DNA from: Bacteroidales bacterium | Lineage (GTDB): Bacteria; Bacteroidota; Bacteroidia; Bacteroidales; Tenuifilaceae | Length of the DNA: 24,000 nt | Reading direction: 5' to 3' | NCBI GenBank assembly: GCA_013376985.1 | Contig: JACABB010000021.1 | Coordinates: forward strand, 69,327 to 93,326 | Part shown: in pieces, positions 7,572-24,000 of the stretch | How positions within the stretch are numbered: position 1 is the first letter of the stretch | Layout of the letters: each line of letters starts with the position of its first letter | Position numbers and translations under genes: made by a program | Notes under the pieces: model-generated | Database searches by the model: none | What the model saw: the letters and a program-made list of their open reading frames with translations, nothing else | What the model was told of the DNA's origin: nothing

Positions 7572-7880
7572 GTATACCTTTGCCCTTGTGCTTAAAAATT
7601 TGTATTATTGATTCGTGAATTCTGAGAGGTGATTTCTTTGATTATCAAAGATAAAGAAATTTGAAATTGGATATTTTAACTCAGAGTTAGAGCAAGTGTT
7701 TTGAAATAGGATTGAATGAACTGTATCTTTGTTGTATAAAATTGGATATACAAACTCTCTAAACTGATTAAATAAATTTTAGTTTGGATTTAGATACATA
7801 AGGTGAGTTAATAGCCGATTGGAAACTCTGCCAAAATGGCGAGAAACCTTTTACTATTGAACCACTTAAATAAAATAGTA

Positions 7881-8117
7881 ATGTATTTAGCTGTTAAAAA
7901 AGTAGAACCGATTAATAATTTTAAGCTTTTGCTTACTTTTGAAAATGGTGAAAAGCGAAAATTCGATATGAATCCATACTTAAATCAGGGTATATTCAAG
8001 GAACTTAGAAATGTAGATAAGTTTAATACTGTTCATTTAAGTTTTGATACTATTGAATGGGATAATGAAGCAGATTTTGACCCAGAAACTCTTTACGCTT
8101 TAAGTGAAAAGATATAA
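7881..8117 (+). CDS. DUF2442-like small protein
   Basis: 78 aa from ATG 7881. The pattern V..VEP...F.L.L.F.NGE.R.FD..PYL..GIF..L......F..V......IEW.N..DFDPE.LY resembles the DUF2442 family. The track's N-terminal extension to 7836 is unsupported. Confidence 0.6.
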   Translation: MYLAVKKVEPINNFKLLLTFENGEKRKFDMNPYLNQGIFKELRNVDKFNTVHLSFDTIEWDNEADFDPETLYALSEKI

Positions 8118-10266: not shown

Positions 10267-10323
10267 TATTCCAAAGTATAATATTCAAAACTACAAAACA
10301 TCATTACCTAACTAAATACATAT

Positions 10324-10358
10324 AAACAATCCCATCTTTTAAGAGATTGGGATTGTTT
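10324..10358 (+). terminator. stem-loop downstream of the exonuclease gene
   Basis: aaacaatccc...gggattgttt forms a 10-bp stem, with an extra atct/agat extension that includes a bulge. The trailing sequence is only weakly T-rich. Confidence 0.5.
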
Positions 10359-10517
10359 AATTAACGCGAGTTCGATGTAAGTATAACATACTGATCCTAA
10401 GCATGGTGTTAGATTGTTACTTTGTCATGCTGAACGAAGTGAAGCATCTAGTCTTTAGGCGATTAGATCCTTCACTTCGCTCAGGATGACACCTTACATC
10501 GAACTCACGTTAATTAA
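10357..10517. repeat. 161-bp MITE-like hairpin repeat, copy 1 (left flank of peptide island)
   Basis: About 25-bp terminal inverted repeats: ttaattaacgcgagttcgatgtaag / cttacatcgaactcacgttaattaa. An internal hairpin is gtcatgctgaacgaagtgaagcatc...gatccttcacttcgctcaggatgac. About 85% identical by eye to 20158-20318, in the same orientation. Confidence 0.8.
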
Positions 10518-10523
10518 TTACAA

Positions 10524-10724
10524 TTAGGTACTTTGAAACAAAGTTTTGCCACAAGTACATGAACCGCCTGTACAAGCACCACCAGTGCAAGCACCGCCTG
10601 TGCAATCACCACCCCAACACAAACCACCACTGCAATCACCACCTTTAATTTCACCCATTTCTTTAGCGTCCATTAACTGTGATAAGTTCAAGCTTTCACT
10701 TACAAAATCTTGAAGTTTTTTCAT
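10524..10724 (-). CDS. RiPP precursor A1: 29-aa GG leader plus 37-aa Cys/Gly-rich core (7 Cys, CxGGx pentads)
   Basis: MKKLQDFVSESLNLSQLMDAKEMGEIKGG | DCSGGLCWGGDCTGGACTGGACTGGSCTCGKTLFQST. It has a double-glycine leader, lies next to an rSAM/SPASM gene and shares a cluster with a C39-ABC exporter. Confidence 0.85.
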   Translation of the reverse strand: MKKLQDFVSESLNLSQLMDAKEMGEIKGGDCSGGLCWGGDCTGGACTGGACTGGSCTCGKTLFQST

Positions 10725-10750
10725 GATTAAAACATATTAAATTTATTTTT

Positions 10751-10810
10751 ACAGTAACCATTACCCATTACTGCTTGGATTTTCCTGAATCGAGGCACAG
10801 GAGAGCCATA
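10751..10810 (-). promoter_or_regulatory. conserved 5' leader element, copy 1 (upstream of precursor A1)
   Basis: About 60 nt, starting 26 nt upstream of the ATG and shared with three other precursors. It contains a CAGUAAU-GGGUAAUG-GUUACUG hairpin on the minus strand. Confidence 0.7.
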
Positions 10811-10852
10811 GAGTATGAAAATATTGATAGATATTAACTTCCTGAGAAAATA

Positions 10853-12376
10853 TTAAATTATTGGATTAATAAATGCTGGTGCTTTTTTGCAGCGAGGATC
10901 AGGGTAATCCCAATTTTCGTCGCCATATACTTTTAGCACATCTGCCCAACATTTGTTTGGATATTTATTGTAGCATTCATCTAGTAGTTCACAATTTTTG
11001 CAGGGGCTTTCATCCCTAAAATCATCTTTGGTAAAATTAACCCATTTCAGGGCTGCTGGGGAATTCCATATCTCTTCAATTGAATTTTCGAGGATGTTTC
11101 CGATAATAAACTTGTTTTTCCAGTACATCTGTTCGCAGATTGTCACATTTCCATCCGGTAGAATGTAAATATGCGAGCGATTTGCAGAGCAGGATGCTCC
11201 TGGAAAAGATTTACTTCCTTGTTCTGCAGTAAAAAATCCTCTATTAATGTAGGATTTATCGATCCCAATTTTAAGTGTATTTAGTTTATTCAACTCATCG
11301 AGATATATGAAAGCATCATCCCTACTTTGTTTGTCGAGTTTTATTTTTTCAAATTCGTTCGAAGTGTACAGCGAGCGATATGCAATGCGAACCTGCCACT
11401 CTTTAATTCTTTTCAAAGTTGACAAATAGTTGTACATCTCGCTTAGTTCTTCTTTGCCAGAATTTAAATTTGTTAGTACGCTGATTACATGGTAGGGTAG
11501 TTCATATTTATCCATCAACTCCAAGGTGTGCTTCATTTTATCGATATAACTTTTTTGTACACCTAGTAGTTGGTTTATTTTTTCCTTTGTTATTAAGTCG
11601 AAGGATATTTGGAAAGTTAAATTTGGGAATTGCTTCAATTTTTTAATATCATTTTCATTGATTGGAATTTTTGTGGATATTAAATTTCTATCGTAACCAG
11701 AGTTACTTAATTCACATAACAACTCGTACCATCTATTGTATAGGAAAAATTCCCCTCCTCCAAGATTTATATTTTTAATTCTTAGTTTTTTAGATTCACT
11801 AATAATTTCTTTAATTCTACTAAAGGGAATTGAACATATAATGTTTTTTTCTCTATCTGCATAACAATATAAACAGTTTGTAACGCATTGATTAGTTAAC
11901 ATAACTGTAATTGAAGAAGGGCAGTGGAATAATCTTTGTGTTTCAAAATCAAGTTCTTGAAAAACGAAATCTTCTGGCTTGTATTCATAATTAATTTTTA
12001 ATTTTTCGGAGTATTCTATTATTATTTTTTTCGGAAAACTAAAAACTACCCCATCATATTCAGTATGGATTATCTCCTCATTTTCAATATAAGGACTTAT
12101 AATCTTTTCTGCTTCAAGTTTACTTAGATCAAGAAATTCACTCAAATTTTCTAAAGCCTGCTCTAGGGTTGTGGGAGTGGAGAAAAAAGAAAGGAGCATT
12201 GCTTGAATAGGGTGGATTATAGAAAACCACCCTTTACTTGATGTTTCACATTGATTTATACTATTATATGTAATTAACGTTCGTTTAATATCATTTTTAT
12301 AATTATAATCTGGATTTAAAACATATTTTTTACCCATATAATTTCTGAAATTATTTTGTGAATAAGATCCTCGCAT
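10853..12376 (-). CDS. radical SAM / SPASM-domain peptide maturase, paralog 1
   Basis: CX3CX2C cluster in TNQCVTNCLYCYAD and GGGE SAM-binding motif (NLGGGEFFLY). A C-terminal Cys-rich SPASM-like region reads GASCSANR...ICEQ...CKNCELLDECYNKYPNKCW...DPRCKK. An N-terminal extension of about 150 aa is compatible with a peptide-recognition (RRE/PqqD-like) domain. An alternative start lies at 12337 (MGKKYVLNPDY). Confidence 0.9.
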   Translation of the reverse strand: MRGSYSQNNFRNYMGKKYVLNPDYNYKNDIKRTLITYNSINQCETSSKGWFSIIHPIQAMLLSFFSTPTTLEQALENLSEFLDLSKLEAEKIISPYIENEEIIHTEYDGVVFSFPKKIIIEYSEKLKINYEYKPEDFVFQELDFETQRLFHCPSSITVMLTNQCVTNCLYCYADREKNIICSIPFSRIKEIISESKKLRIKNINLGGGEFFLYNRWYELLCELSNSGYDRNLISTKIPINENDIKKLKQFPNLTFQISFDLITKEKINQLLGVQKSYIDKMKHTLELMDKYELPYHVISVLTNLNSGKEELSEMYNYLSTLKRIKEWQVRIAYRSLYTSNEFEKIKLDKQSRDDAFIYLDELNKLNTLKIGIDKSYINRGFFTAEQGSKSFPGASCSANRSHIYILPDGNVTICEQMYWKNKFIIGNILENSIEEIWNSPAALKWVNFTKDDFRDESPCKNCELLDECYNKYPNKCWADVLKVYGDENWDYPDPRCKKAPAFINPII

Positions 12377-12434
12377 TAGAAAGTCTTTGAGTTATTTAAA
12401 TTCCTAATCATTTAATAACTATTTTGAAATAAAA

Positions 12435-12467
12435 CTATTCCATACATTGAATTGTTGTATGGAATAG
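12435..12467 (-). terminator. stem-loop between precursor B and rSAM paralog 1 (terminator/attenuator)
   Basis: Perfect 12-bp stem ctattccataca / tgtatggaatag with a 9-nt loop, followed on the minus strand by UUUUAUUU. Confidence 0.65.
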
Positions 12468-12497
12468 CAATTTAGATGACAGTGAGATTGTTTGTTA

Positions 12498-12674
12498 TTA
12501 AATAATTCCACCTTCACATAAACCACCTGCACATATACCACCTTCGCAATAAACTCTGATTGTATCTTTACAATCCACAACTATTTTACCACCTGTGATT
12601 TCATCTAACTCTTTTGATTCCATTAAACTTGAAACATCAAGTTTTAATTTTGATAAATCTTTTAATTTTTTCAT
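12498..12674 (-). CDS. RiPP precursor B, absent from ORF track: 29-aa GG leader plus 29-aa core (4 Cys)
   Basis: Hand translation of the minus strand from ATG 12674 to TAA 12498 gives MKKLKDLSKLKLDVSSLMESKELDEITGG | KIVVDCKDTIRVYCEGGICAGGLCEGGII. At 58 aa it falls below the length of every ORF listed in the track. It is preceded by the conserved leader element. Confidence 0.78.
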   Translation of the reverse strand: MKKLKDLSKLKLDVSSLMESKELDEITGGKIVVDCKDTIRVYCEGGICAGGLCEGGII

Positions 12675-12699
12675 AAATAAGTTTTATTTAATTTGTTTT

Positions 12700-12757
12700 C
12701 AGTAACCTTTCCCCATTACTGTTTGGGGTTTCCTGATTTGAGGCGCAGGAGAGCCTT
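12700..12757 (-). promoter_or_regulatory. conserved 5' leader element, copy 2 (upstream of precursor B)
   Basis: Minus-strand sequence: UUAAGGCUCUCCUGCGCCUCAAAUCAGGAAACCCCAAACAGUAAUGGGGAAAGGUUACUG, 25 nt before the ATG. Confidence 0.7.
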
Positions 12758-12800
12758 AAAGTATATAAATATTGATAAATGTTCATTTTTTGACTAAATG

Positions 12801-14291
12801 CTAAATTATTGGATTAATAAATGCTGGTGCTTTTTTGCAGCGAGGATCAGGGTAATCCCAATTTTCGTCGCCATATACTTTTAGAACATCTGCCCAACAT
12901 TTATTTGGATATTTATTGTAGCATTCATCAAGTAGTTCGCAGTTTTTACAAGCACTTTCATCTCTGAAATCTTCTTTTTTCATATTTACCCATTTTAATG
13001 AGGCTGCTGAGTTCCATACTTCCTCGATTGAATTCTCAAGTATGTTACCAATGATAAACCTTTTTTTCCAGTACATTTGTTCGCAAATTGTTACATTCCC
13101 TTCGGGGAGAATATACATATGCGAACGATTTGCTGAGCATGATGAACCTAAAAATGATTTACTGCCATTCTCCGCTGTAAAATATCCTTTTTCAATAACA
13201 GATTTATCAATTGAAACTTTCAAGGTTTTAAGATTATTTAATTCCTCTAAATGCGCAAATACGTCTTGCCTGTCCTGTTCTTGAAGTTTTATACTTTCAA
13301 ATTCTGTAGAGCTATATAATGATCGATAGGCGATACGAGCCTGCCATTCTTTAATGTTTTTTAGCGTTGATAAATAGCTATGCATTTCGGTTAACTCTTC
13401 TTTGTTAGAGTTTAAGTTGGTGAGTACGCTTATTACATGATAAGAAAGACCATGCTTATCCATCAATTCCAAAGTGTGCTTCATCTTTTCAACATAACTC
13501 CCAGGTACATCCAATATCTTATTTATTTTTTGTTCTGAGAGAGAATCAAATGAGAATTGGTAGGTTAGATAAGGGAATTGTTTAAGTTTAATTATATCAT
13601 TTTCGCTTATGGGTACTTTTGTTGAAATAAAATTTTTATAAAATCCATACTTATACAACTCTGATAATAATTCGTACCAATTTTTATATAAAAAGAATTC
13701 ACCTCCACCAATCTGAATACTTTTAATTTTTAAATTTTTGGCTTCTTTAATTAATTCCTTTATTCGTTCGAACGGAATTGTGCATGTTACCTCTTGGCTT
13801 TTATCCGCATAGCAGTATATGCAATTTGTTACGCAGCGATTGGTTACCATAATGGTTATTACGGCGGGACTCTGGTTTAATCTTACCGAATCAAAATCCA
13901 ACTCTTTATAAACAAATTCATCAGGTTTGTAAGTATATAAAATCTTTAAATTTTCGTGATATTTAATAATGATTTGTTTTGGAAACTTGAAGTTATGTCC
14001 ATTATATTCGGTGAAAATAGCCTCTTTATTCTCTATAAAAGGTTTAATTATATTGAGAGTTTCCTCTTTACTTAAACTCAAAAATTCGCTCAAATCTTCA
14101 ACCGCTTTGTCAATACTAATAGGGTTAGAGAAAAATGAGAGAATCATTGCTTGAACAGGGTGAATAACGGATACCCACTCTGTATTGGTTTGCTCACATT
14201 GAGCATCTGAATTTGCAATGATTATACTTCTTTTTATGTCATTTTTGAAGTTATAATCTGGATTTAAAACATAAAGATCCTCGCTTATCAT
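12801..14291 (-). CDS. radical SAM / SPASM-domain peptide maturase, paralog 2
   Basis: Same architecture as paralog 1: TNRCVTNCIYCYAD, IGGGEFFLY and a SPASM-like Cys-rich C-terminus. The last 49 aa are identical to paralog 1. Confidence 0.9.
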   Translation of the reverse strand: MISEDLYVLNPDYNFKNDIKRSIIIANSDAQCEQTNTEWVSVIHPVQAMILSFFSNPISIDKAVEDLSEFLSLSKEETLNIIKPFIENKEAIFTEYNGHNFKFPKQIIIKYHENLKILYTYKPDEFVYKELDFDSVRLNQSPAVITIMVTNRCVTNCIYCYADKSQEVTCTIPFERIKELIKEAKNLKIKSIQIGGGEFFLYKNWYELLSELYKYGFYKNFISTKVPISENDIIKLKQFPYLTYQFSFDSLSEQKINKILDVPGSYVEKMKHTLELMDKHGLSYHVISVLTNLNSNKEELTEMHSYLSTLKNIKEWQARIAYRSLYSSTEFESIKLQEQDRQDVFAHLEELNNLKTLKVSIDKSVIEKGYFTAENGSKSFLGSSCSANRSHMYILPEGNVTICEQMYWKKRFIIGNILENSIEEVWNSAASLKWVNMKKEDFRDESACKNCELLDECYNKYPNKCWADVLKVYGDENWDYPDPRCKKAPAFINPII

Positions 14292-14370
14292 AAGTAGATT
14301 TATTAAAATAAATGTTGAAATAAAGAAGTTGATTATAAAAGTTTTAAAACAATTTGAAAAAAATAATAAA

Positions 14371-14402
14371 ACAATCCTATCCCTTGAAAGGAATAGGATT
14401 GT
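14371..14402 (-). terminator. stem-loop between precursor A2 and rSAM paralog 2 (terminator/attenuator)
   Basis: acaatcctat...ataggattgt forms a 10-bp stem, extendable with one bulge. On the minus strand it is followed by UUUAUUAUUUUUUU. Confidence 0.7.
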
Positions 14403-14425
14403 CTAATAACGATATCCAACAATGA

Positions 14426-14653
14426 TTAGTTGGCCATCTCTTCTTCGGCAAAAGTATTCTTGCCAAGAGTGCATTCGCCGCATGTGCATGAACCACATGT
14501 GCATGAACCACCTGTGCATGCACCACCTGTACAATCACCCCCCCAGCACAAACCACCACTACAATCACCACCTTTAATTTCGCTCATTTCTTTAGCGTTC
14601 ATTAACTGTGATAAGTTCAAGTCTTCGCTTACAAAATCTTGAAGTTTTTTCAT
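14426..14653 (-). CDS. RiPP precursor A2: 29-aa GG leader plus 46-aa Cys/Gly-rich core (9 Cys)
   Basis: MKKLQDFVSEDLNLSQLMNAKEMSEIKGG | DCSGGLCWGGDCTGGACTGGSCTCGSCTCGECTLGKNTFAEEEMAN. The leader is near-identical to A1. Confidence 0.85.
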   Translation of the reverse strand: MKKLQDFVSEDLNLSQLMNAKEMSEIKGGDCSGGLCWGGDCTGGACTGGSCTCGSCTCGECTLGKNTFAEEEMAN

Positions 14654-14678
14654 GGTTAAAACAGATTAATTTTTTTTT

Positions 14679-14738
14679 ACAGTAACCTTTCCCCATTACT
14701 GTTTGGAGTTTCCTGATTCGAGGCGCAGGAGAGCCTTA
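14679..14738 (-). promoter_or_regulatory. conserved 5' leader element, copy 3 (upstream of precursor A2)
   Basis: Minus-strand sequence: CUAAGGCUCUCCUGCGCCUCGAAUCAGGAAACUCCAAACAGUAAUGGGGAAAGGUUACUGU. Confidence 0.7.
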
Positions 14739-15343
14739 GATTATCCTGTAAAATATTATAGGGCTTTTGTTTTTTGCGCTAATAATTCTAATAATAGAAT
14801 TTAGAGCATGCAGTCCATGAAAATTTTTAGAGTTAGTTCAAGTATTAAATGTAAATGTTTTATATTCTGTTGCATTTTACCCTTTGATCATATTATTAAG
14901 AGTAAAACTAGTTGTGATTATTCAATAAACATCAATCATTCAAGGAACAGACAATGCCGTGATTTTTTAAACAAGTGTTTTTACACAGCAAGGCACTTAT
15001 ATTCACAGGTATTAAAAATAAAAATATAAAAAAATATTTGATAAATAAAAAAATAGTACAACTTAAATGGTTACTAAAATGTAAACGATATATACATTAT
15101 CGTGCATATGTCATTTACATTTTCTAAGTATAGGAAATTTCTATAATATTGATTTTTAAAAAATGTAGTTGTGATTTTTTATTTTCTTTAAAAGAGTTTA
15201 TTTAGCGGGTGTTAATCATATAAATTAGTTTTTTAAAATCAATAAATCTCCATTTTAAATTTTTATATACAGTTTAGATATTCATTGTTTAATCTGATAT
15301 TCAATGGATTTTTTATTCAAAAAAATATTTTAAGGACGATTAG

Positions 15344-15369
15344 CTACCCTGTCAATTTTGACAGGGTAG
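15344..15369 (-). terminator. perfect hairpin downstream of precursor C
   Basis: ctaccctgtcaa tt ttgacagggtag is a 12-bp palindrome. A T-run on the minus strand begins only about 15-20 nt later, so terminator function is uncertain. Confidence 0.45.
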
Positions 15370-15533
15370 AAAAACTAACTCAAAAAATTTTATTTTGTAT
15401 CCAAAGGAAAAATGAATTGAAGTCAAATAATGTTAAAGGACTTATTTCTTAAGAACTCCTATTTATGAATAAATAATTAAAACAAATATTAGAATTATTT
15501 AGATAAGGAATTTCCTTTGGGTATGAGGGATTA

Positions 15534-15743
15534 TTACCAAACAAAACGACCAAGACCATCTGTACACATTCCACCAACACAGCCCCAGAAACCATTATGA
15601 CAGTCATTAACATCTGTTGTTAATCCCTGATAGCATGAAAAAAATCCATTCTCACATCCACCTTGAATGTCTCTCATCTCCTTAGCATTCATTAATTGTG
15701 ATAAGTCCAAATTTTCACTTGTAAAATCTTTAAGTTTTTTCAT
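15534..15743 (-). CDS. RiPP precursor C: 29-aa GG leader plus 40-aa aromatic/Cys core (5 Cys)
   Basis: MKKLKDFTSENLDLSQLMNAKEMRDIQGG | CENGFFSCYQGLTTDVNDCHNGFWGCVGGMCTDGLGRFVW. It has the same leader family and the same upstream element but a different core. Confidence 0.8.
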   Translation of the reverse strand: MKKLKDFTSENLDLSQLMNAKEMRDIQGGCENGFFSCYQGLTTDVNDCHNGFWGCVGGMCTDGLGRFVW

Positions 15744-15769
15744 AAGTAAATCATATTAAATTTAGTTTT

Positions 15770-15829
15770 ACAGTAACCTTTCCCCGTTACTGTTTGGGGT
15801 TTCCTGATTTAAGGTACAGGTGAACCTTA
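15770..15829 (-). promoter_or_regulatory. conserved 5' leader element, copy 4 (upstream of precursor C)
   Basis: Minus-strand sequence: CUAAGGUUCACCUGUACCUUAAAUCAGGAAACCCCAAACAGUAACGGGGAAAGGUUACUGU. Confidence 0.7.
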
Positions 15830-16472
15830 GAGGATGCCGTAAAATTTTATTGAACATTTACTTTATGTGTTAACTATTACAATTTATTATGCAAACATAT
15901 GTAATAAGTTGCATGTCAATATGTAAAATATTGATTTAAATATATGTATATAAGCGTTTTGTGATTTTTTATAAATTTCGGTTTTAAAACAACTTCTAAT
16001 CATAAATTAATACCATGTAAAATAATGATTATGTTTTTTTAGTGAAATGTAATTCGCAACTATTCTATAAACTGAGTTATTCAATGAACAAGTGAAAATG
16101 GAGGATTGATGAAGATTTTTTTCAATCAATAAGTATTTTATTATACAGTAAAGCGCTCATTTTGTTAAAAATAAATATAAAAGTATAAAATATTTATGAT
16201 AAGTAAAATATGTAATGTGGCAAAAAGTAGCATAATTTATGTGATTTTCGAAATATGAATTATATATACGCAATAATATATGTGTAATTTGTATTTAATT
16301 GGCGTAGGCAATGTCTATAATATTGATTTTTAAAAGATGAGGTTATGAGACGATTTTAATATTTGGTATTTTAGCCTTGATTATTATCAATGATTAAAAT
16401 AATTCATATACATTGATTTTATCGATTTTGAAACTATCCTTCGTTTATTAATCTTGGATATAACACTTCTTT

Positions 16473-18572
16473 TTAAACCAATCGTGTTATCCCATTTTCA
16501 AGAGTGTAAATACGATCAAATTGCGTTAATAAATTGGAGCGGTGTGTAATTATAACAATCGCCATATTTTGTTTTTGTTGTTCTAATAGCTGCATAACAA
16601 AACCTTCTGTATGACGATCCATTGCTGCTGTGGGCTCATCTAATAGTAAGAGTTGAGGTTGCTTGTAAAGGGCACGTGCCAATGCAACTAATTGTTTCTG
16701 TCCACCTGAAATATTTACTCCTTCCTCACCAAGCAGAGTGTAATAGAATTGCGGAAAAGCTTTGAAGTACTTATCAAAACCAAAGTCCTCACAGAATTTA
16801 ATTATTTGTTTCGCTTCAGCTGCGGAGTCGGATAAGCAAATATTATCCAACAGAGTACCATTAAAAAGACTTATCTCCTGTGGAACAACGCTTGTCTTAC
16901 TCCTTAATTCGAAATTGTTTATATTATCAATATTGATATCGTTTATGGATATTGTTCCATTTTCCTGATGATACAATTTTTGAAGAATCTGTATTAATGT
17001 ACTTTTCCCACAACCACTTTCGCCTATAATGGCAATTGTTTCACCTTTTTTTACTTCAAAATTAACGTTGGTTAAAAGAGGTAAACTCCCTGGAAATCGA
17101 AAGGAAATTTGTGAAACTTTTAATTCATTGAAAGACAAATTAGCAGTATTGCTTTCTGTTTCGGGGTTATATTCGGGCGAGATGCTAACAAAATCATACA
17201 TTCTATCAAAGGCAATTTTTGCTCCCTGCACTTGTATGTTTAATAGTGCCAAACGACCAACTCCGGGTAAAAGACTTCCTGTCATTGAGAGTACGGCTAT
17301 CATTGCTCCAACAGTAAACGAACTGGTTATTACCAAATACGATGAGCTTGCTATAATTGCAGCAATTATAATTGTTGCGGCTGTATCGCCATACAAACTC
17401 AGATTGGTTTGGGTTTTACCTAATTGTTCTACCTTTTGTTGATAATGGCCGTAAATAGATTGATTTAATTTACTGAAAAAGGACTCTTTATTAAACGTTT
17501 TAATAGCGTATATCCCTTGAATTGTATTTATATAATTACTTTCGTTTTTTGCATAGGCAACCATCACCTCTCGTTGATCTTTAACAACTTTATGGTGAAA
17601 GCGATATACGATATAAAAAAAAATAGGAATACTAGTAAGTGATATGAATCCCAGAGTAATGGAATAGAGGAAGATAAATATAATTGATACCAGAACTACC
17701 ATTCCATCGATTAATACATTCCCAACCAAATAGCTTATTGTGTTTTGTATGCGTGAGGTATCGTTCATTCGCGCAATAAGCTCCCCTGTTTTACGATTAT
17801 CAAAAAAAGATTTTGGGAGAAATAGTAAACTACTATAGAAACTATTAATTATGCGAACGTTAAAGTTGCGACTCTGACCAACTAAAAATATTTGTCGTAT
17901 CCATGTTATTCCTCCTCGGAGTAGAAGTAGGATTGTTAAAATGGCCATCCCCGGTATAAGGCGATTTATAGTGTGATGCGGCAGAATATCATCAACTAGT
18001 TTTTGTGAGAAAAGTGCTGTGGTAGTTCCAAGAATAGCAATTAGAATGCCTATTCCAAGGCAAATGCTAAGTAAATTTATATCTTCTTTAACAAGATTAT
18101 ATATCCATCTCTTTTTTGCATTTTTAATGGTTTCGGATTTTATAAACTCTTTATTTGGCGTGAGTTGTAATAATGTTTTTGATACCCATATTTTATTCAA
18201 TTCTTCTTCATTTATGTACTTCATTCCTTCCGCTGGATCACCCACTAAAAAAAGGTTGTCGCAGAAATCGTAGCATACCATGTAGTGTTGCAGGCGGTTA
18301 TCAATAAAAACATGTATAATAAAAGGTTTTTTCAGATCCTTAATATGTGCCAAATCCGCTTGGCTTCCTACTGCATCAAACCCATTCTTTTGTGCTGCTT
18401 GGTACAGCCCCAAAAGAGTTGTTCCCTGTTTGGATGTGCCGCTTGTCTCTCTCAGATTCTCAAGAGGAACATGACCCCCGTAGTATTTTATTATTGAAGC
18501 AAGACATGCCACTCCGCAATCACTCTGATCTTGCTGTCTTACAAATGTTTTTGCTAATTTCTTAGAGATCAT
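16473..18572 (-). CDS. bacteriocin/RiPP ABC exporter with N-terminal C39 double-glycine peptidase domain
   Basis: N-terminal QQDQSDCGVACLASII carries the C39 catalytic Cys context. It also has a six-helix TMD, Walker A GESGCGKST, ABC signature ISGGQKQ and Walker B LLLLDEPT. Confidence 0.92.
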   Translation of the reverse strand: MISKKLAKTFVRQQDQSDCGVACLASIIKYYGGHVPLENLRETSGTSKQGTTLLGLYQAAQKNGFDAVGSQADLAHIKDLKKPFIIHVFIDNRLQHYMVCYDFCDNLFLVGDPAEGMKYINEEELNKIWVSKTLLQLTPNKEFIKSETIKNAKKRWIYNLVKEDINLLSICLGIGILIAILGTTTALFSQKLVDDILPHHTINRLIPGMAILTILLLLRGGITWIRQIFLVGQSRNFNVRIINSFYSSLLFLPKSFFDNRKTGELIARMNDTSRIQNTISYLVGNVLIDGMVVLVSIIFIFLYSITLGFISLTSIPIFFYIVYRFHHKVVKDQREVMVAYAKNESNYINTIQGIYAIKTFNKESFFSKLNQSIYGHYQQKVEQLGKTQTNLSLYGDTAATIIIAAIIASSSYLVITSSFTVGAMIAVLSMTGSLLPGVGRLALLNIQVQGAKIAFDRMYDFVSISPEYNPETESNTANLSFNELKVSQISFRFPGSLPLLTNVNFEVKKGETIAIIGESGCGKSTLIQILQKLYHQENGTISINDINIDNINNFELRSKTSVVPQEISLFNGTLLDNICLSDSAAEAKQIIKFCEDFGFDKYFKAFPQFYYTLLGEEGVNISGGQKQLVALARALYKQPQLLLLDEPTAAMDRHTEGFVMQLLEQQKQNMAIVIITHRSNLLTQFDRIYTLENGITRLV

Positions 18573-18581
18573 TTTAAATGA

Positions 18582-19088
18582 TTAAAAGTTTTGAATCGCA
18601 TCAATTTTTACTTCTCCTTTAAAATGTTTTGTTAGAAGATGTTTTTCATTGTATGCGAAAACGGATGGGATTGTCAATGTGCCGAACGTATTGTAGAAAT
18701 CATTATCATTTGTTTGGAGTACAGCTATGTTTGAGTAATTCTGAAGATTATTATTTTCTTTAAAAGCAATTATTTTATCAGTTGTTTCCGAAGAGGTTAG
18801 AATGATTTGATACGATGAAAATCGCTCTATGTTTTTGGTGATTTCCTTCACTTCGTATATGCAATGTTCACATTCGCTATTAAAATAGATTATGATTACT
18901 GGACTATTTTCGGCGATGTTTTTCTTTGAATAATCAACACCGTCCAAAGTTTTAAAATGGAAATTTGGTAACTTTTGAATGTTTGTAAGAGTCTGATTTT
19001 TTTTATCCAAACTTCTACAAATAAGGAAAATGAGAAGACCTATAACCAAAAGGCTTAAGCCCCCAAAGATTATTTTTATTTTACCCAT
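18582..19088 (-). CDS. membrane-anchored thioredoxin-fold thiol-disulfide oxidoreductase (TlpA/ResA-like)
   Basis: 168 aa with an N-terminal TM helix and a CEHC (CxxC) motif in the context IIIYFNSECEHCIYE. It overlaps the upstream gene by 8 nt, which suggests translational coupling. Confidence 0.75.
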   Translation of the reverse strand: MGKIKIIFGGLSLLVIGLLIFLICRSLDKKNQTLTNIQKLPNFHFKTLDGVDYSKKNIAENSPVIIIYFNSECEHCIYEVKEITKNIERFSSYQIILTSSETTDKIIAFKENNNLQNYSNIAVLQTNDNDFYNTFGTLTIPSVFAYNEKHLLTKHFKGEVKIDAIQNF

Positions 19089-19740
19089 TGCTTATAGTTA
19101 AAAACATGATGAGTAATAGCCATATAATTAACCCTACACCATAAGATGAGGCAACCATTTTAAGCATGGATGAGTAACCCTTATTTAAAACAGTTTTTAA
19201 TCCCAATGCCAACGCTAACCAGTAAAAAAACTCAAAAACATTAAATTGTTGCAATGGGTAAATAAGCCAACTTGCCACCTCCTTTATATTAAATAGGTTG
19301 ACAAGCGAAAGGGGATAGAAGTTGTTTATTTCCTGCAAAGTATGTGGGGGATACATTAAAAAGTATGCCATTTTAGATAAATCGGCAAGTAGAAATATTA
19401 CTTCGGCAATTACTGTAATTTTGAATAATTTGGCGAAACTAATATTATGCCCGAATACTAAAGCCCCTATATTGAGTGAAAAACTGACAAGGACCAATTT
19501 CAAAGCCACTAGTAGTGGCAAAATCACATAGTTAATCCACGAAAATTTTTCCCGAATCTCAAATATTCGTGAAATGCGTTCTGCGCTAAGTTGTTCCCCT
19601 AGAGCGTTATAATACAGATTATCCGTTATAACAAATACATTTAGTATAAAACTCGAAACGATATATAATAAACATACTATAAGGAAAAACCATTTTGCAT
19701 TTATCTTCTCAAAATGATTAGCAAGGGCTTGGGTTTTCAT
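19081..19740 (-). CDS. polytopic membrane protein, candidate immunity/accessory protein
   Basis: 219 aa with about 5 hydrophobic helices by eye. It sits between the bacteriocin-like peptide gene and the thioredoxin-like gene. No motif recognised. Confidence 0.55.
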   Translation of the reverse strand: MKTQALANHFEKINAKWFFLIVCLLYIVSSFILNVFVITDNLYYNALGEQLSAERISRIFEIREKFSWINYVILPLLVALKLVLVSFSLNIGALVFGHNISFAKLFKITVIAEVIFLLADLSKMAYFLMYPPHTLQEINNFYPLSLVNLFNIKEVASWLIYPLQQFNVFEFFYWLALALGLKTVLNKGYSSMLKMVASSYGVGLIIWLLLIMFLTISNG

Positions 19741-19816
19741 TCAATACTAAATAATTATAACGAATAAAATTATGATTTTGGAAAAATCACTTACGATTAG
19801 TTGATTTAAATAAATG

Positions 19817-19841
19817 CAGAGACGGAATTATTCCGCCTCTG
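19817..19841 (-). terminator. stem-loop immediately after the bacteriocin-like peptide gene
   Basis: Minus-strand CAGAGGCGGAA UAA UUCCGUCUCUG forms an 11-bp stem with one G-U pair, followed by CAUUUAUUU. Confidence 0.6.
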
Positions 19842-19853
19842 TATTATATTGTA

Positions 19854-20009
19854 TTAGCAAGCAGCAGCACCAACAGCAAAACCAATTAAAGCTGCAAATG
19901 GTCCCCAATGAGCACCTACAATAGTAGCAGCAGCTACACATGTCCAATAATCATCACCCTCAAGACCACCTTGAACTTTGCTCATTTCGTTAAAATCTAA
20001 AGTTTTCAT
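19854..20009 (-). CDS. class-II-bacteriocin-like peptide, absent from ORF track: 15-aa GG leader plus 36-aa hydrophobic core
   Basis: Hand translation of the minus strand from ATG 20009 to TAA 19854 gives MKTLDFNEMSKVQGG | LEGDDYWTCVAAATIVGAHWGPFAALIGFAVGAAAC. It has a short double-glycine leader, GxxxG-type motifs and two Cys residues. Confidence 0.65.
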   Translation of the reverse strand: MKTLDFNEMSKVQGGLEGDDYWTCVAAATIVGAHWGPFAALIGFAVGAAAC

Positions 20010-20157
20010 GTTAGTTTATTTTAGTTTGTTTCCCTACTCTATTTATAAAGGCTTTTCGGAATCCGCCTATTGTTTTTGCGCGCAAACAATATTTTGATTT
20101 AGATTATCCAATTTGCTTATTAGCATACTTACAAACAACTATTAATCCTAATACTTG

Positions 20158-20318
20158 TTAATTAACGTGAACTCGATCTAAGCATAACATCTTGATTGCT
20201 AGTATAGCATTAGATTGTTGCTTTGTCATGCTGAACGAAGTGAAGCATCTCGTCTTTAGATAACTAGATCCTTCGCTTCGCTCAGGATGACACCTTACAT
20301 TGAACTCACGTTAATTAA
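20158..20318. repeat. 161-bp MITE-like hairpin repeat, copy 2 (right flank of peptide island)
   Basis: Same length, same orientation and same ttaattaacg...cgttaattaa termini as 10357-10517. The internal gtcatgctgaacgaagtgaagcatc...cttcgcttcgctcaggatgac hairpin is present. Confidence 0.8.
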
Positions 20319-20485
20319 GAAATAGAATATCAAGTGTGAATTGTTAGCATGTTAAACATCAACAATATTAGGCCATTCAACTTTAATTGATTTTAACAGG
20401 TGTTCCATTTATTTGTACTATTATTCCATTGAATAGATATATTTGCATGTCAATTAACTACATAATCATTAAAATCTTTGAGAAT

Positions 20486-23434
20486 ATGAATCTGGTTAGG
20501 AAGAAACTACTAACAACTTTGTTATTAGCATTAATTGCTGTTGGCGCATTATCTCAGAATGCGATAGATTCACTTAAAAACGCTTTGGAAAAATCATCCA
20601 GCGATACTTCGAAAATTATTACAATGCTTAGTCTGGCTGAAAATTATTTCTATACAGATGAAAACAAGTCGCGAGAGTATTTTAATAACGCTAAAACATT
20701 GTTGGATAAGGTTCAATTTAAGAACGGAACTGCTTACTCTTATTATGTTAATGGTTATTTACTTAAAAATACACCTGCTGCGGCATTGGAGAGTTTTAAC
20801 AAATCTCTAATAATTTATACCGAGCTAAAGAATAATCCAGGAATAGCCAAAGCTAACTTAGCAATTGGTAGTACATATATTAATCAATCTAAATTGGATA
20901 AGGGAATGCCTTACTATTCTACTGCCTTGCAGATTTATCAATCATTAAATGATAGAAAAGGCATTGGAGTATGTTACTCTGCTTTAGGCAATATTTATGC
21001 TCATCAGGGAAAATTTAAAATGGCTCTTGATTATAACAAAAAAGCGTTGAAGTACCTTACATACCAAAGTTATGCATATTTTAATGAGCATGTAAGTATT
21101 GCAAATAATTATTCAGCTTTGGGTGAGGCGAAAATGGCTTTACTTTACTATGATAGTCTATTGAATACTTTAAAGAATAAGAATTATTTTGATATCCTTT
21201 CGAATGTTTATGCCAATTTAGGAGCTATTTACTCAGCATCTCAGAACTACAATAAAGCAAAGCAGTGCTATAAATCATCCATAGAATATGGGACAAAAGG
21301 AAAAAACGATTATTACTCCATTGTTGCATGTTTAACAATGTCGGATTTATATATTAACCTAAACCAGCCAGACTCAGTAATTAATTTACTTAAAAAGAAC
21401 TCGCCAACCATTATTCGGTATAAATCAAAAACTTTTTTGTCTTATTACTACCAATTTTTATCCTCAGCCTATGAAGTTAAAGGCGATATAAACTCTGCCC
21501 TTAAATATTATAAATCCTTTAAAAGCGCAGAAGATTCTTTGAATATCGAACAATCTAATCAACGTCTTTACGAGCTACAAACCTCATTGGATGTTGAGAA
21601 AAAGGATAAAGAGATTGACCTACTAAACAAGGAGAATCAATATAAATCACTTCAATTATCTAAACAGAGGATTATGATTTTACTTATTCTGCTGTCAACG
21701 GTATTATTCTTAGTTATGGCATTTGTTTTATACACTCGTTTCCGATTAAAGCACAAGCTGGTTGGTATGTTGGAAAATAAGAATAGAGAGATTGAGCAAC
21801 AGCAGCAGGAAATTATGGCAATGAACGATATGCTTGGAAAGCAGAATGAAAGTTTGCTGGAATTGGACGATATGAAATCCCGATTCTTTACCAACATATC
21901 ACATGAGTTCCGAACACCTTTATCGCTTATAATAGGACCTTTAACATCTATGTTGGAGGAATCCAACAACAAGGAAGCGCAAAATGAATTCCGACTCATG
22001 CTAAAACATGCAAATAGCCTATTAAATCTTATAAACCAATTGCTCGATTTATCTAAACTTCAAAAAGCAAGTCTTAATTTACAACTTTCGTATTACGATA
22101 TAAATACATTTTTAAATATACTTATTGATTCATTTTCTGGGCGTGCAAAAGATCTATCCATTGCACTTACCTATAATTCAAATCCTTTGCCTTTGTTTGT
22201 TTGGTTTGATAGAGATAAGGTGGGGACAATTGTATTTAATATCATTTCGAATGCATTAAAGCATACCGATAAAGGAGGTTTTGTAGAGGTTTCTTTGGCC
22301 AGAATAGGAGAGGATGATAATTATGTTGAAATTATGATTAGCGATAATGGAATAGGTATAGAATCGCATGAGCTAAAGAATATTTTTGAACCCTTTTATC
22401 AATCCAACGCAACAATAAATCGAAAGATTGAAGGCAGTGGTATTGGATTAGCTTTAGCTAAGGAGTTGGTTGAGCTACATGGAGGTGAAATTTCGGTGAA
22501 GAGCGAGGCAGGAAAAGGGGCTCAGTTTACAATAGTTTTAGCCGTGAATAAGCATCTTTTACCATTCGCAGAGATAATGTCCGATGAAGATCAGAAAGTT
22601 GATGAAATCGATAGATTTCCAAAACTTCATGAATTCGATTTAGGTGGCGAAGTCGAACCTAAAATAATAAAGGGAGAGACAACAATTCTTGTTGTTGAGG
22701 ATAATGATGATATGAGAGATTACATATCAAAATCGTTAGCGCAGGATTATCAAATTATAGTGGCAGTAAATGGTAGGGAAGGGTTTGATAAAGCAATGGA
22801 GGTATCGCCAGACCTTATAATTACGGATGTTATGATGCCCGAAATGAATGGGTATGAAATGACAAAGCTGATTAAAAACAATCAGCAAACAAGTCATATT
22901 CCTGTAATCATTCTTACTGCAAAAGCCTCCGAGGAGAGTAAGATTGAAGGACTTGAGGCCGCTGCTGATGATTATTTAGTTAAGCCCTTTAATAAAGCAG
23001 AGTTGCTGTTGAGGATTAGAAATACAATATCAAATCGACAAAAGCTAAGGGATAAGTTTCAGAAATCTATCACAGTAAACCCTTCGGAAGTAACAGCAAC
23101 ATCATTAGATGAACAGTTTTTAACAAAAGCACTTCAAATTATTGAAAATCATTTAGCAGATGCCGAGTTTTCCGTGAATGATTTTTGCGATGAAATTGGA
23201 ATGAGTAAGACCAACGTGTATAGAAAACTCAAGGCCTTAACCAATCAATCCTTTACAGAATTTATGCGTTGCATAAGGTTAAAACGGGCAGCATCATTGC
23301 TAGTAATGAAATCAGGCAACTTAACTGAAATTGCTTACGAAACAGGATTTTCCAACCTATCCTACTTCTCCAGAAGCTTTAAGGAACAGTTTGGGGTAAG
23401 TCCATCGGAGTATACAACAAAAGTAAAGAATTGA
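20486..23434 (+). CDS. hybrid two-component regulator: TPR sensor region, TM, histidine kinase, receiver, AraC-type HTH
   Basis: Signal/anchor MNLVRKKLLTTLLLALIAVGALS, TPR-like repeats and a TM helix (IMILLILLSTVLFLVMAFVLY). HisKA box FFTNISHEFRTPL, HATPase G-boxes (DNGIGI, GSGIGLA) and receiver (ILVVEDNDDM...DVMMPEMNG...KPF). The C-terminal AraC HTH reads GFSNLSYFSRSFKEQFGVSPSEY. The track start at 20387 is a TTG; ATG 20486 is preferred. Confidence 0.85.
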   Translation: MNLVRKKLLTTLLLALIAVGALSQNAIDSLKNALEKSSSDTSKIITMLSLAENYFYTDENKSREYFNNAKTLLDKVQFKNGTAYSYYVNGYLLKNTPAAALESFNKSLIIYTELKNNPGIAKANLAIGSTYINQSKLDKGMPYYSTALQIYQSLNDRKGIGVCYSALGNIYAHQGKFKMALDYNKKALKYLTYQSYAYFNEHVSIANNYSALGEAKMALLYYDSLLNTLKNKNYFDILSNVYANLGAIYSASQNYNKAKQCYKSSIEYGTKGKNDYYSIVACLTMSDLYINLNQPDSVINLLKKNSPTIIRYKSKTFLSYYYQFLSSAYEVKGDINSALKYYKSFKSAEDSLNIEQSNQRLYELQTSLDVEKKDKEIDLLNKENQYKSLQLSKQRIMILLILLSTVLFLVMAFVLYTRFRLKHKLVGMLENKNREIEQQQQEIMAMNDMLGKQNESLLELDDMKSRFFTNISHEFRTPLSLIIGPLTSMLEESNNKEAQNEFRLMLKHANSLLNLINQLLDLSKLQKASLNLQLSYYDINTFLNILIDSFSGRAKDLSIALTYNSNPLPLFVWFDRDKVGTIVFNIISNALKHTDKGGFVEVSLARIGEDDNYVEIMISDNGIGIESHELKNIFEPFYQSNATINRKIEGSGIGLALAKELVELHGGEISVKSEAGKGAQFTIVLAVNKHLLPFAEIMSDEDQKVDEIDRFPKLHEFDLGGEVEPKIIKGETTILVVEDNDDMRDYISKSLAQDYQIIVAVNGREGFDKAMEVSPDLIITDVMMPEMNGYEMTKLIKNNQQTSHIPVIILTAKASEESKIEGLEAAADDYLVKPFNKAELLLRIRNTISNRQKLRDKFQKSITVNPSEVTATSLDEQFLTKALQIIENHLADAEFSVNDFCDEIGMSKTNVYRKLKALTNQSFTEFMRCIRLKRAASLLVMKSGNLTEIAYETGFSNLSYFSRSFKEQFGVSPSEYTTKVKN

Positions 23435-23570: not shown

Positions 23571-23699
23571 TAACGCAAGTTTGATGTAAGTATAATATAT
23601 TGATCCTAAGTATAGCATTAGATTGTTGCTTGTCATGCTGAACGAAGTGAAGCATCTCGTCTTTAGATAACTAGATCCTTCGCTCCGCTCAGGATGACA
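23571..23699. repeat. partial third copy of the MITE-like hairpin repeat
   Basis: taacgcaagtttgatgtaagtataat...gtcatgctgaacgaagtgaagcatctcgtctttagataactagatccttcgctccgctcaggatgac. The right terminal inverted repeat is missing and is replaced by the 155-bp tandem array. Confidence 0.7.
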
Positions 23700-24000
23700 A
23701 TGGATTCATTATGGAATTCACCATTATTCAGGAAAGGGGTTGACGTTTCTAGAGCATACTGTTTCTTGTCATGCTGAACGGAGTGAAATCCGAAGGATTC
23801 GCTGAAAGCAACCATCTTGTCTTTAGAAGATCCTTCGCTTCGCTCAGGATGACAATGGATTCATTATGGAATTCACCATTATTCAGGAAAGGGGTTGACG
23901 TTTCTAGAGCATACTGTTTCTTGTCATGCTGAACGGAGTGAAATCCGAAGGATTCGCTGAAAGCAACCATCTTGTCTTTAGAAGATCCTTCGCTTCGCTC
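23700..24000. repeat. tandem repeat, 155-bp period, at least 1.9 units, truncated by window end
   Basis: The sequence from 23701 (tggattcattatggaattcacc...) recurs exactly from 23856. All 145 comparable bases are identical. Each unit contains a gtcatgctgaacggagtgaa...cttcgcttcgctcaggatgac hairpin. Confidence 0.85.

Follow-up and report, generated by a model that had tools for sequence, protein, structure and literature searches.

Which peptides do two paralogous radical S-adenosylmethionine (rSAM) enzymes of one gene cluster act on, and does the spacer between their genes encode a substrate of its own? The question is raised by a window of 24,000 nucleotides (the whole stretch of DNA analysed here) from a metagenome-assembled genome (MAG) of a Bacteroidales bacterium (contig JACABB010000021.1, positions 69,327 to 93,326). 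An initial annotation placed a short minus-strand gene, here called B, between the two rSAM genes, and suggested that it encodes a precursor peptide for rSAM1, the enzyme encoded directly downstream. The evidence described below indicates that B is a genuine gene, conserved by selection, for a Cys-rich peptide that is predicted to be secreted and probably modified by the next-encoded enzyme. The best explanation, which we regard as likely, is that B is a functional precursor of a peptide that is ribosomally synthesized and then post-translationally modified (a RiPP), matured by an rSAM/SPASM enzyme (preferentially rSAM1) and then exported by a peptidase-containing ATP-binding cassette (ABC) transporter (PCAT). 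The argument turns on the following features:

12498-12674, minus strand: precursor gene B, 58 aa, MKKLKDLSKLKLDVSSLMESKELDEITGG followed by KIVVDCKDTIRVYCEGGICAGGLCEGGII; an open reading frame (ORF) at a 30-aa minimum.
12588-12674, minus strand: B leader, 29 codons, double-glycine type (from alignments and a leader hidden Markov model, HMM).
12501-12587, minus strand: B core, 29 codons with 4 Cys, its C-terminal part consisting of three CxGGx repeats with a 15-nt period.
12700-12757, minus strand: conserved 5' element of B, ending 25 nt before the ATG.
12434-12468, minus strand: hairpin between B and rSAM1, with a 13-bp stem and a 9-nt loop, then UUUUAUUU.
10853-12337, minus strand: rSAM1, 494 aa from MGKKYVL, directly downstream of B, with Pfam Radical_SAM and SPASM domains.
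12801-14291, minus strand: rSAM2, 496 aa, 70% identical to rSAM1, with Radical_SAM and SPASM domains.

The 58-codon frame at 12498-12674 begins with ATG, and its translation is exactly the one first quoted for it. ORF calling with a 30-aa minimum lists B at these positions, where a 60-aa cut-off had hidden it. The gene was described as unannotated, which is true of the ORF track cut at 60 aa but not of the public record, since GenBank contains the identical protein, NVO10827.1 ('hypothetical protein HXX16_12745', from a MAG of a Bacteroidales bacterium). The gap between the two rSAM genes exists, but is 463 bp and not 424 bp long, because rSAM1 most likely starts at 12337 (MGKKYVLNPDYN...), in agreement with the rSAM2 alignment and the 494-aa NCBI product (P0014); the start at 12376 is probably too long. 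The claimed 29-aa leader ending in GG is confirmed by gapless alignment to the leaders of three sibling precursors, which are encoded with an exporter in the same cluster:

14426-14653, minus strand: precursor A2, 75 aa, upstream of rSAM2.
10524-10724, minus strand: precursor A1, 66 aa, downstream of rSAM1.
15534-15743, minus strand: precursor C, 69 aa, with the same leader type and 5' element and a different core.
16473-18572, minus strand: C39-peptidase ABC transporter (PCAT), matching PF03412 (Peptidase_C39, 8.8e-35), ABC_membrane, ABC_tran and NCBIfam bacteriocin ABC models.

All four leaders end in GG and share 14 invariant positions, and the B leader matches the leader HMM with E = 1.4e-15. 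Its end, ...EITGG, and its length agree with C39-processed leaders, which have about 15-30 aa and end in GG (or GA/GS). In double-glycine leaders, positions -4, -7 and -12 are conserved as hydrophobic and -8 as acidic; B has I at -4, L at -7, M at -12 and E at -8, with GG at -2/-1, and all four positions are invariant or conservative in one of its alignments. The co-encoded ABC transporter with its C39 peptidase domain is the exporter expected for peptides with such leaders. In the core, the 15-nt periodic repeat family of B is common to A1 and A2.

The probability of 58 stop-free codons arising by chance in the spacer (A 0.40, T 0.32) is 0.0034. A word-indexed protein search with B matched only B itself, and relatives emerged only when 1.84 billion representative proteins were searched exhaustively with HMMER. 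This search gave three short, near-full-length proteins (P0127, P0129 and P0131); P0127 (63 aa) is 58% identical to B (E = 2e-10). The metagenomic loci L087 and L089 each encode a B-type peptide that is 57-60% identical to B over leader and core and has the same Cys pattern, and the core layout is alike in B, P0127 and the L089 copy: VV..DC....IR..CxGGxCxGGxCxGGhh (h = hydrophobic). The L087 and L089 peptide genes differ by 18 synonymous and 7 non-synonymous changes, giving a ratio of non-synonymous to synonymous substitution rates (dN/dS) of 0.05/0.65 (∼0.08). Between B and either of them dN is 0.31-0.32 and dS is saturated (>1.5), with dN/dS about 0.15-0.2. Values so far below 1 among B-type orthologues show purifying selection on the frame, and both homologous loci keep an intact ORF at B's position. 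B itself is intact throughout, including the start, GG site, four Cys, stop, 5' element and hairpin.

The position of B is also typical of the enzyme family. Among 80 homologous loci (one genome per species), 72 rSAM genes have sufficient upstream sequence, and 57 of these are preceded within 650 nt by a small Cys-containing ORF of GG type, which lies downstream in only 6. B is thus in the canonical substrate position for rSAM1. The interpretation of B as a precursor gene is therefore borne out by intact orthologues, purifying selection, canonical position, the GG leader and the C39 exporter in the cluster, and we consider it very likely, from these sequence comparisons, that B is a genuine precursor. 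Two findings weigh against it. B matches no curated NCBIfam or Pfam precursor model; for TIGR01847 (bacteriocin_sig), a model of 15 positions derived from other leaders, there is no match to B at E <= 1, and A2 scores 11.7 bits, below the 15.7 cut-off. In addition, dN between the leader of B and those of its siblings is 0.41-0.46, compared with 0.06-0.12 among the siblings themselves; this is compatible with specialisation, but also with relaxed constraint. A B-like 67-aa ORF whose leader lacks the GG site (KIYIG) occurs in the MAG of a related locus (L004:229-432).

The putative maturase rSAM1 matches PF04055 (2.9e-12) and PF13186 (2.9e-15), both above the Pfam cut-off, and so has a SPASM domain; it retains every invariant column of the family alignment, including CX3CX2C and the SPASM cysteines. 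Orthologues of rSAM2 that are 92-96% identical occur in loci with a single rSAM gene. An AlphaFold2 model of rSAM2 (predicted local distance difference test score of 86) has an N-terminal unit of three strands and three helices, followed by rSAM and SPASM domains. In the rSAM2 model, this unit comprises strands 13-18, 21-26 and 40-43 and helices 45-54, 60-71 and 75-85. The best full-length Protein Data Bank matches of the model (Foldseek) are SuiB (5v1s), SkfB (6efn) and CteB (5wgg), with E from 1e-17 to 1e-13, and the modelled architecture is that of leader-guided RiPP maturases. The likeness to these enzymes covers the predicted three domains, CX3CX2C and the SPASM cysteines. However, the identity is only 13-16%, and SuiB makes a Lys-Trp C-C bond whereas SkfB and CteB make thioethers, so that their chemistry cannot be transferred to the window enzymes. 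A sactipeptide or ranthipeptide class for B is only suggested, by the Cys-rich cores and by the presence of SkfB and CteB among the nearest folds. Both rSAMs score below every NCBIfam family cut-off except that of the generic SPASM domain, and far below those of sactipeptide and ranthipeptide maturase models (SkfB, 48.6 and 34.9 bits versus 300; AlbA, 45 versus 850; StsB, 32 versus 625).

The enzyme family comprises at least 587 clusters at 90% identity (E <= 1e-20), with members in cultured gut Bacteroidales including Segatella copri, Bacteroides cellulosilyticus, B. intestinalis and Phocaeicola. A literature search for a characterised member of this Bacteroidales family found nothing specific. 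The HMM built from the window leaders detects a locus only where its rSAM is about 70% identical or more (L001-L008 and L059); more distant family members have other GG leaders, and across the family no core feature but Cys is conserved.

Is B, then, the substrate of rSAM1 in particular? The initial annotation gave each rSAM its own precursor immediately upstream (A2 for rSAM2, B for rSAM1) and saw in this a hint of enzyme/substrate pairing. The positions are as described, but no enzyme gene follows A1 or C. Support for pairing is moderate, coming from a recurrent gene unit and from the grouping of the rSAM1 N-terminal domain, and the catalytic core lacks this signal. The unit, a B-type peptide gene, a hairpin with the same stem and an rSAM gene, recurs in L087 and L089, which come from two unrelated samples (JGI 3300044712 and SRR29400112). 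The N-terminal domain of rSAM1 is 67% identical to that of P0015, the L089 enzyme, versus 59% to that of rSAM2, and it joins the enzymes of B-type peptides in ∼60% of bootstraps; rSAM1 falls in the rSAM2 clade in 0 of 200, for residues 1-140 and 1-430 alike. B-type leaders share L7, S/P20 and L23, which A-type leaders lack. Together, the leader and domain patterns are what co-inheritance of a leader and its recognition domain would look like, and they give this interpretation moderate support.

The strongest rival explanation is that there is no one-to-one pairing: either rSAM, or a complex of the two, would process A1, A2, B and C, and the gene order would be a record of recombination. Several findings weigh on this side. 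The B-rSAM1 signal is limited to the N-terminal domain, with a bootstrap of only ∼0.6, and residues 141-380 of rSAM1 are nearer to rSAM2 (66.7%) than to P0015 (59.2%), so that the catalytic-core phylogeny does not split rSAM1 from the rSAM2 side. The last 66 residues of rSAM1 are 92% identical to rSAM2, as the 3' ends of the two genes are being homogenised by gene conversion. The four leaders have their 14 invariant positions in common, and neither A1 nor C comes with its own enzyme gene. Two precursors flank the one rSAM gene of the single-enzyme relatives L006 and L004, and one enzyme can thus presumably serve several substrates. There are also precedents in known systems: RumMC1 and RumMC2 have their peptide substrates in common (PMC6779426), and TrnC and TrnD work as a complex on both precursors (PMC12093266). 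Against the absence of pairing stand the recurrence of the B-type unit in two unrelated samples, the affinity of the predicted leader-binding domain of rSAM1 to the enzymes of L087 and L089, and the three residues particular to B-type leaders. On balance we lean slightly towards preferential processing of B by rSAM1, and regard unpaired processing as the less probable, though quite possible, arrangement.

Other loci vary the theme. Among 80 species-representative loci (L007-L086), the only other with two rSAM genes is L038 (1908-5503, from a Parabacteroides MAG), an independent precursor-rSAM-precursor-rSAM arrangement with unrelated acidic leaders and CGLGC-type cores. L088 encodes an rSAM2-like enzyme and then the B-like P0129, with no second rSAM gene in the remaining 500 nt after P0129.

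The proposed pathway from B to a secreted product would run as follows. In the first step, each precursor would be transcribed from its own start near the 5' element, for B just upstream of the element or within it. To judge from the gene anatomy, the hairpins after B and A2 may act as leaky terminators, allowing much precursor and little enzyme to be made. The B leader would then dock on the N-terminal domain, which resembles a RiPP recognition element (RRE), of a maturase, preferentially rSAM1. In the next step, the enzyme would modify the CxGG-repeat core, most probably through thioether cross-links derived from Cys, as in sactipeptides or ranthipeptides; this is suggested because thioether enzymes are among the nearest folds and Cys is the only universally conserved core residue. 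Finally, the PCAT would cut after Gly29 and export a 29-residue product.

A second rival concerns the maturation step, and rests on other genes of the island:

18582-19088: thioredoxin-like protein.
19854-20009, minus strand: fifth GG-leader peptide gene, 51 aa, MKTLDFNEMSKVQGG followed by LEGDDYWTCVAAATIVGAHWGPFAALIGFAVGAAAC.
Between the 51-aa peptide gene and the thioredoxin-like gene in transcription order: 219-aa membrane protein with a weak YknW-like match.

B might be exported unmodified, or at most disulfide-bonded, as a class II-type bacteriocin, in which case its adjacency to rSAM1 would be incidental. The GG leader, the PCAT, the thioredoxin-like protein, the unmodified-looking peptide at 19854-20009 and the VKOR genes in L004 and L006 are all consistent with this. 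However, in 57 of the 72 family members, as at both orthologous B-type loci, a peptide gene is followed by an rSAM gene, and the CxGG repeat of B is common to the A-type peptides flanking rSAM2, which makes unmodified export improbable. With the 51-aa peptide, the island has five GG-leader peptide genes, not four. This gene too is missed in default ORF lists because it is under 60 aa. The peptide has a Gly/Ala-rich hydrophobic core resembling unmodified class II bacteriocins and scores 14.8 bits with TIGR01847, just under the cut-off; a GC-rich hairpin follows the gene, which lies upstream of the genes for the membrane protein, the thioredoxin-like protein and the PCAT.

B might instead be a decaying duplicate of an A-type precursor, open but non-functional. 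The rapid divergence of its leader would fit, and a sibling gene has visibly decayed in L004, where the A2 orthologue (7600-7897) is a pseudogene with a lost ATG, a frameshift after ...GGDCT and a degraded 5' element. None of these defects is found in B, whose start, GG site, Cys, stop, element and hairpin are intact; moreover, B is not derived from A at this locus, and B-type genes elsewhere have dN/dS ∼0.08. Decay is accordingly very unlikely. As for a chance open frame in an A+T-rich spacer, the shortness of B (58 codons) and its lack of a curated family model are outweighed by the open-frame probability (P ∼0.003) and by alignable homology to siblings and orthologues over leader and core, which refute it for practical purposes.

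The noncoding elements around B are conserved as well. A downstream hairpin had been described with 12 bp at 12435-12467; it exists, with the corrected 13-bp stem at 12434-12468, and the region folds with z = -4.7 (0 of 200 shuffles fold as well). Its stem arms, 11 nt each (CTATTCCATAC / GTATGGAATAG), are kept in L087 and L089 while the spacers around them have diverged, the sole change being one G-U wobble in L087. The hairpin is a probable partial terminator or attenuator. Comparable structures follow two of the siblings:

14369-14404: hairpin after A2, with a 16-bp stem and a U run.
About 10423-10491: large terminal hairpin after A1 (-47 kcal/mol).

The conserved upstream element at 12700-12757 is likewise borne out. 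A 36-nt degenerate pattern, CAGGAAN6AN2AGTAAN5AN2GGTTACTG, occurs four times in the window, each time ∼25 nt before one of the four precursor ATGs, and in none of 100 shuffles. The four copies are 83-90% identical to each other, compared with 52-67% for the adjoining leader codons, and the element also precedes precursor genes in L004, L005 and L006. It is a probable 5' untranslated region or promoter-proximal element. Across eight copies, two proposed pairs change in a compensatory way (copy C has GGU/ACC for GGC/GCC, and three copies have A-U for C-G), and unpaired cells occur only in the pseudogene copy and the L004 downstream copy; this hints at an RNA structure without coming near to proving it. 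The element of the L004 pseudogene has five changes, which disrupt the proposed CCCC/GGGG stem. A scan of the metagenome collection with the pattern, verified on the window and the loci, found no further copies, and those known (window, L004, L005 and L006) are not numerous or diverse enough to judge covariation. An Rfam scan of 10300-20300 at E <= 10 assigned the precursor 5' elements to no family; the remaining sub-threshold matches are far below the gathering score and chance-like, several of them being miRNA models on hairpins. A sigma-70 promoter scan was uninformative (40 sites versus 36.7 expected), Bacteroidota promoter motifs being different.

A related element is the RNA motif DUF805b (RF02914), which was matched before peptide genes at the following positions:

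Window 20031-20069, minus strand: DUF805b, 45.1 bits.
L001 7563-7597: DUF805b.
L002 7506-7540: DUF805b.
L004 1030-1064 and 1516-1550: DUF805b.
L008 992-1026 and 1537-1571: DUF805b.
L011 3618-3651: DUF805b.
L059 3506-3540: DUF805b.
L087 199-234: DUF805b, before the B-type gene, 44.4 bits.
L089 2482-2517: DUF805b, before the B-type gene, 49.7 bits.

The motif thus precedes the B-type genes of both orthologous loci, and many other GG-leader genes too. It resembles the window element in its place (ending ∼22 nt before the ATG) and in its AAGGC...GCC start. However, the four precursor elements of the window are ∼20 nt longer and are not recognised by the DUF805b model at E <= 10 (gathering threshold 35.6 bits). 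Of 14 DUF805b matches, the comparison covered all but L002 13852-13886 and L013 1796-1829, and these 12 all end shortly before a small GG-leader peptide gene, encoding an rSAM precursor or a class II-like peptide, ∼22-25 nt ahead of its ATG. The motif may for this reason be a 5' element of often-unannotated peptide genes rather than of the next annotated gene. A literature search on DUF805b function found nothing specific.

The minus-strand order of the whole island is DUF805b, 51-aa peptide, membrane protein, thioredoxin-like protein, C39 exporter, C, A2, rSAM2, B, rSAM1, A1 and terminal hairpin. No rSAM gene or remnant follows precursor C (tblastn); the ∼780 nt between C and the 5' element of A2 (14750-15533, minus strand) contain no coding-strand ORF of 60 aa or more. 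The island is bracketed over 9.8 kb by a 161-nt direct repeat (10357-10517 and 20158-20318, 86% identical), and within each copy is a long palindrome, which in the one after A1 folds at -47 kcal/mol. This could be an element like repetitive extragenic palindromes or miniature inverted-repeat transposable elements, or could mark where a mobile or recombining cassette ends. A related copy near 23663-23908 is suspected from tblastn matches that are weak and spurious, together with an ORF that ends in ...VILSGAKDLVI. Divergent from the island, 20387-23434 (plus strand) encodes a 1015-aa hybrid two-component protein (TPR, HisKA, HATPase, receiver and AraC helix-turn-helix), in place of which L001 and L002 have LytTR-type regulators near their rSAM loci; these proteins are candidate regulators of the peptide genes.

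The history of the two rSAM genes is recorded in their repeats:

10866-11046, minus strand, versus 12814-12994: rSAM 3'-end tract, 95-100% nucleotide identity compared with 60-75% elsewhere (sliding identity).
12696-12995 and 10748-11047: direct repeats of ∼300 nt, 87% identical.

Identity of 95-100% is restricted to the last ∼180 nt, which points to gene conversion or a recombination junction between the paralogs. An origin of rSAM1 as a recent local duplicate of rSAM2 was considered and rejected, as rSAM1 never entered the rSAM2 clade in 200 bootstraps and the high identity is confined to the last 180 nt. L004 and L006 are syntenic to the window and have their single rSAM gene between two precursors, so that the window differs from them by the segment of B, hairpin and rSAM1. 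Recombination between the ∼300-nt repeats would delete exactly B, the hairpin and most of rSAM1 and give the L006 arrangement; the single-enzyme loci may accordingly be deletion derivatives, or the window an insertion derivative.

A bolder reading, which we offer only tentatively, takes the locus as two juxtaposed, largely orthogonal modules (A-type/rSAM2 and B-type/rSAM1) of an uncharacterised, widespread Bacteroidales RiPP class. Its CxGG-repeat cores would acquire an undescribed cross-link pattern or chemistry, co-evolution of leader and RRE domains would determine specificity, with gene conversion keeping the catalytic and C-terminal parts alike, and DUF805b and the longer element would be dedicated 5' control elements of Bacteroidota GG-leader genes.

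How does the cluster compare with known systems? The closest in layout is the ruminococcin C locus of Ruminococcus gnavus, with five RumC precursors and the sactisynthases RumMC1 and RumMC2, an arrangement that its authors credit to duplication and rearrangement (PMC6779426). Both have several short Cys-containing precursor genes and two paralogous rSAM/SPASM enzymes in one operon. However, RumMC1 and RumMC2 are >95% identical and redundant and the RumC peptides 70-87% identical, whereas the enzymes here are 70% identical and B differs from the A type in its whole core; the host is a Gram-negative Bacteroidales bacterium, with GG leaders and a PCAT. No family membership at the level of sequence was found, NCBIfam sactisynthase models scoring far below cut-off. 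Thuricin CD is similar in having two different precursors (TrnA/TrnB) and two diverged rSAMs (TrnC/TrnD) in one cluster, but TrnC and TrnD are active only as a complex on both peptides (PMC12093266). Each enzyme type of the window could arguably work alone, given the single-rSAM relatives L006, L087 and L089. The precursor family TIGR04149 (GG_sam_targ_CFB) also consists of rSAM-modified peptides; the P0127 leader matches it weakly (15 bits, E = 0.018, with the cut-off at 25 bits), and B not at all at E <= 1.

Judged by sequence, B is outside every curated precursor or maturase family tested (TIGR01847, TIGR04149, AlbA, SkfB and StsB). Nevertheless, by function it is of a kind already known, the GG-leader RiPP precursors that go with a PCAT and a maturase of putative RRE-rSAM-SPASM architecture. 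The finding is correct, helps annotation and offers a pairing hypothesis, but would hardly surprise a RiPP specialist. B is an ordinary member of a widespread, uncharacterised Bacteroidales gene cluster of peptide-antibiotic type; rSAM loci were the commonest RiPP-like regions in a mining study of that order (PMC10352776). The routine lesson is that RiPP precursors are hidden by a 60-aa ORF cut-off. Without B, rSAM1 seems to lack the upstream substrate gene typical of its family, and the cluster resembles a plain duplication. With B, the locus consists of two precursor-hairpin-maturase modules, two extra precursors and one exporter, and therefore poses a simple question of four peptides against two enzymes. 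As the family is large, present in cultured gut species and uncurated, an enzyme/substrate pair amenable to study would give access to a RiPP class that is so far unexplored, in a phylum of medical relevance.

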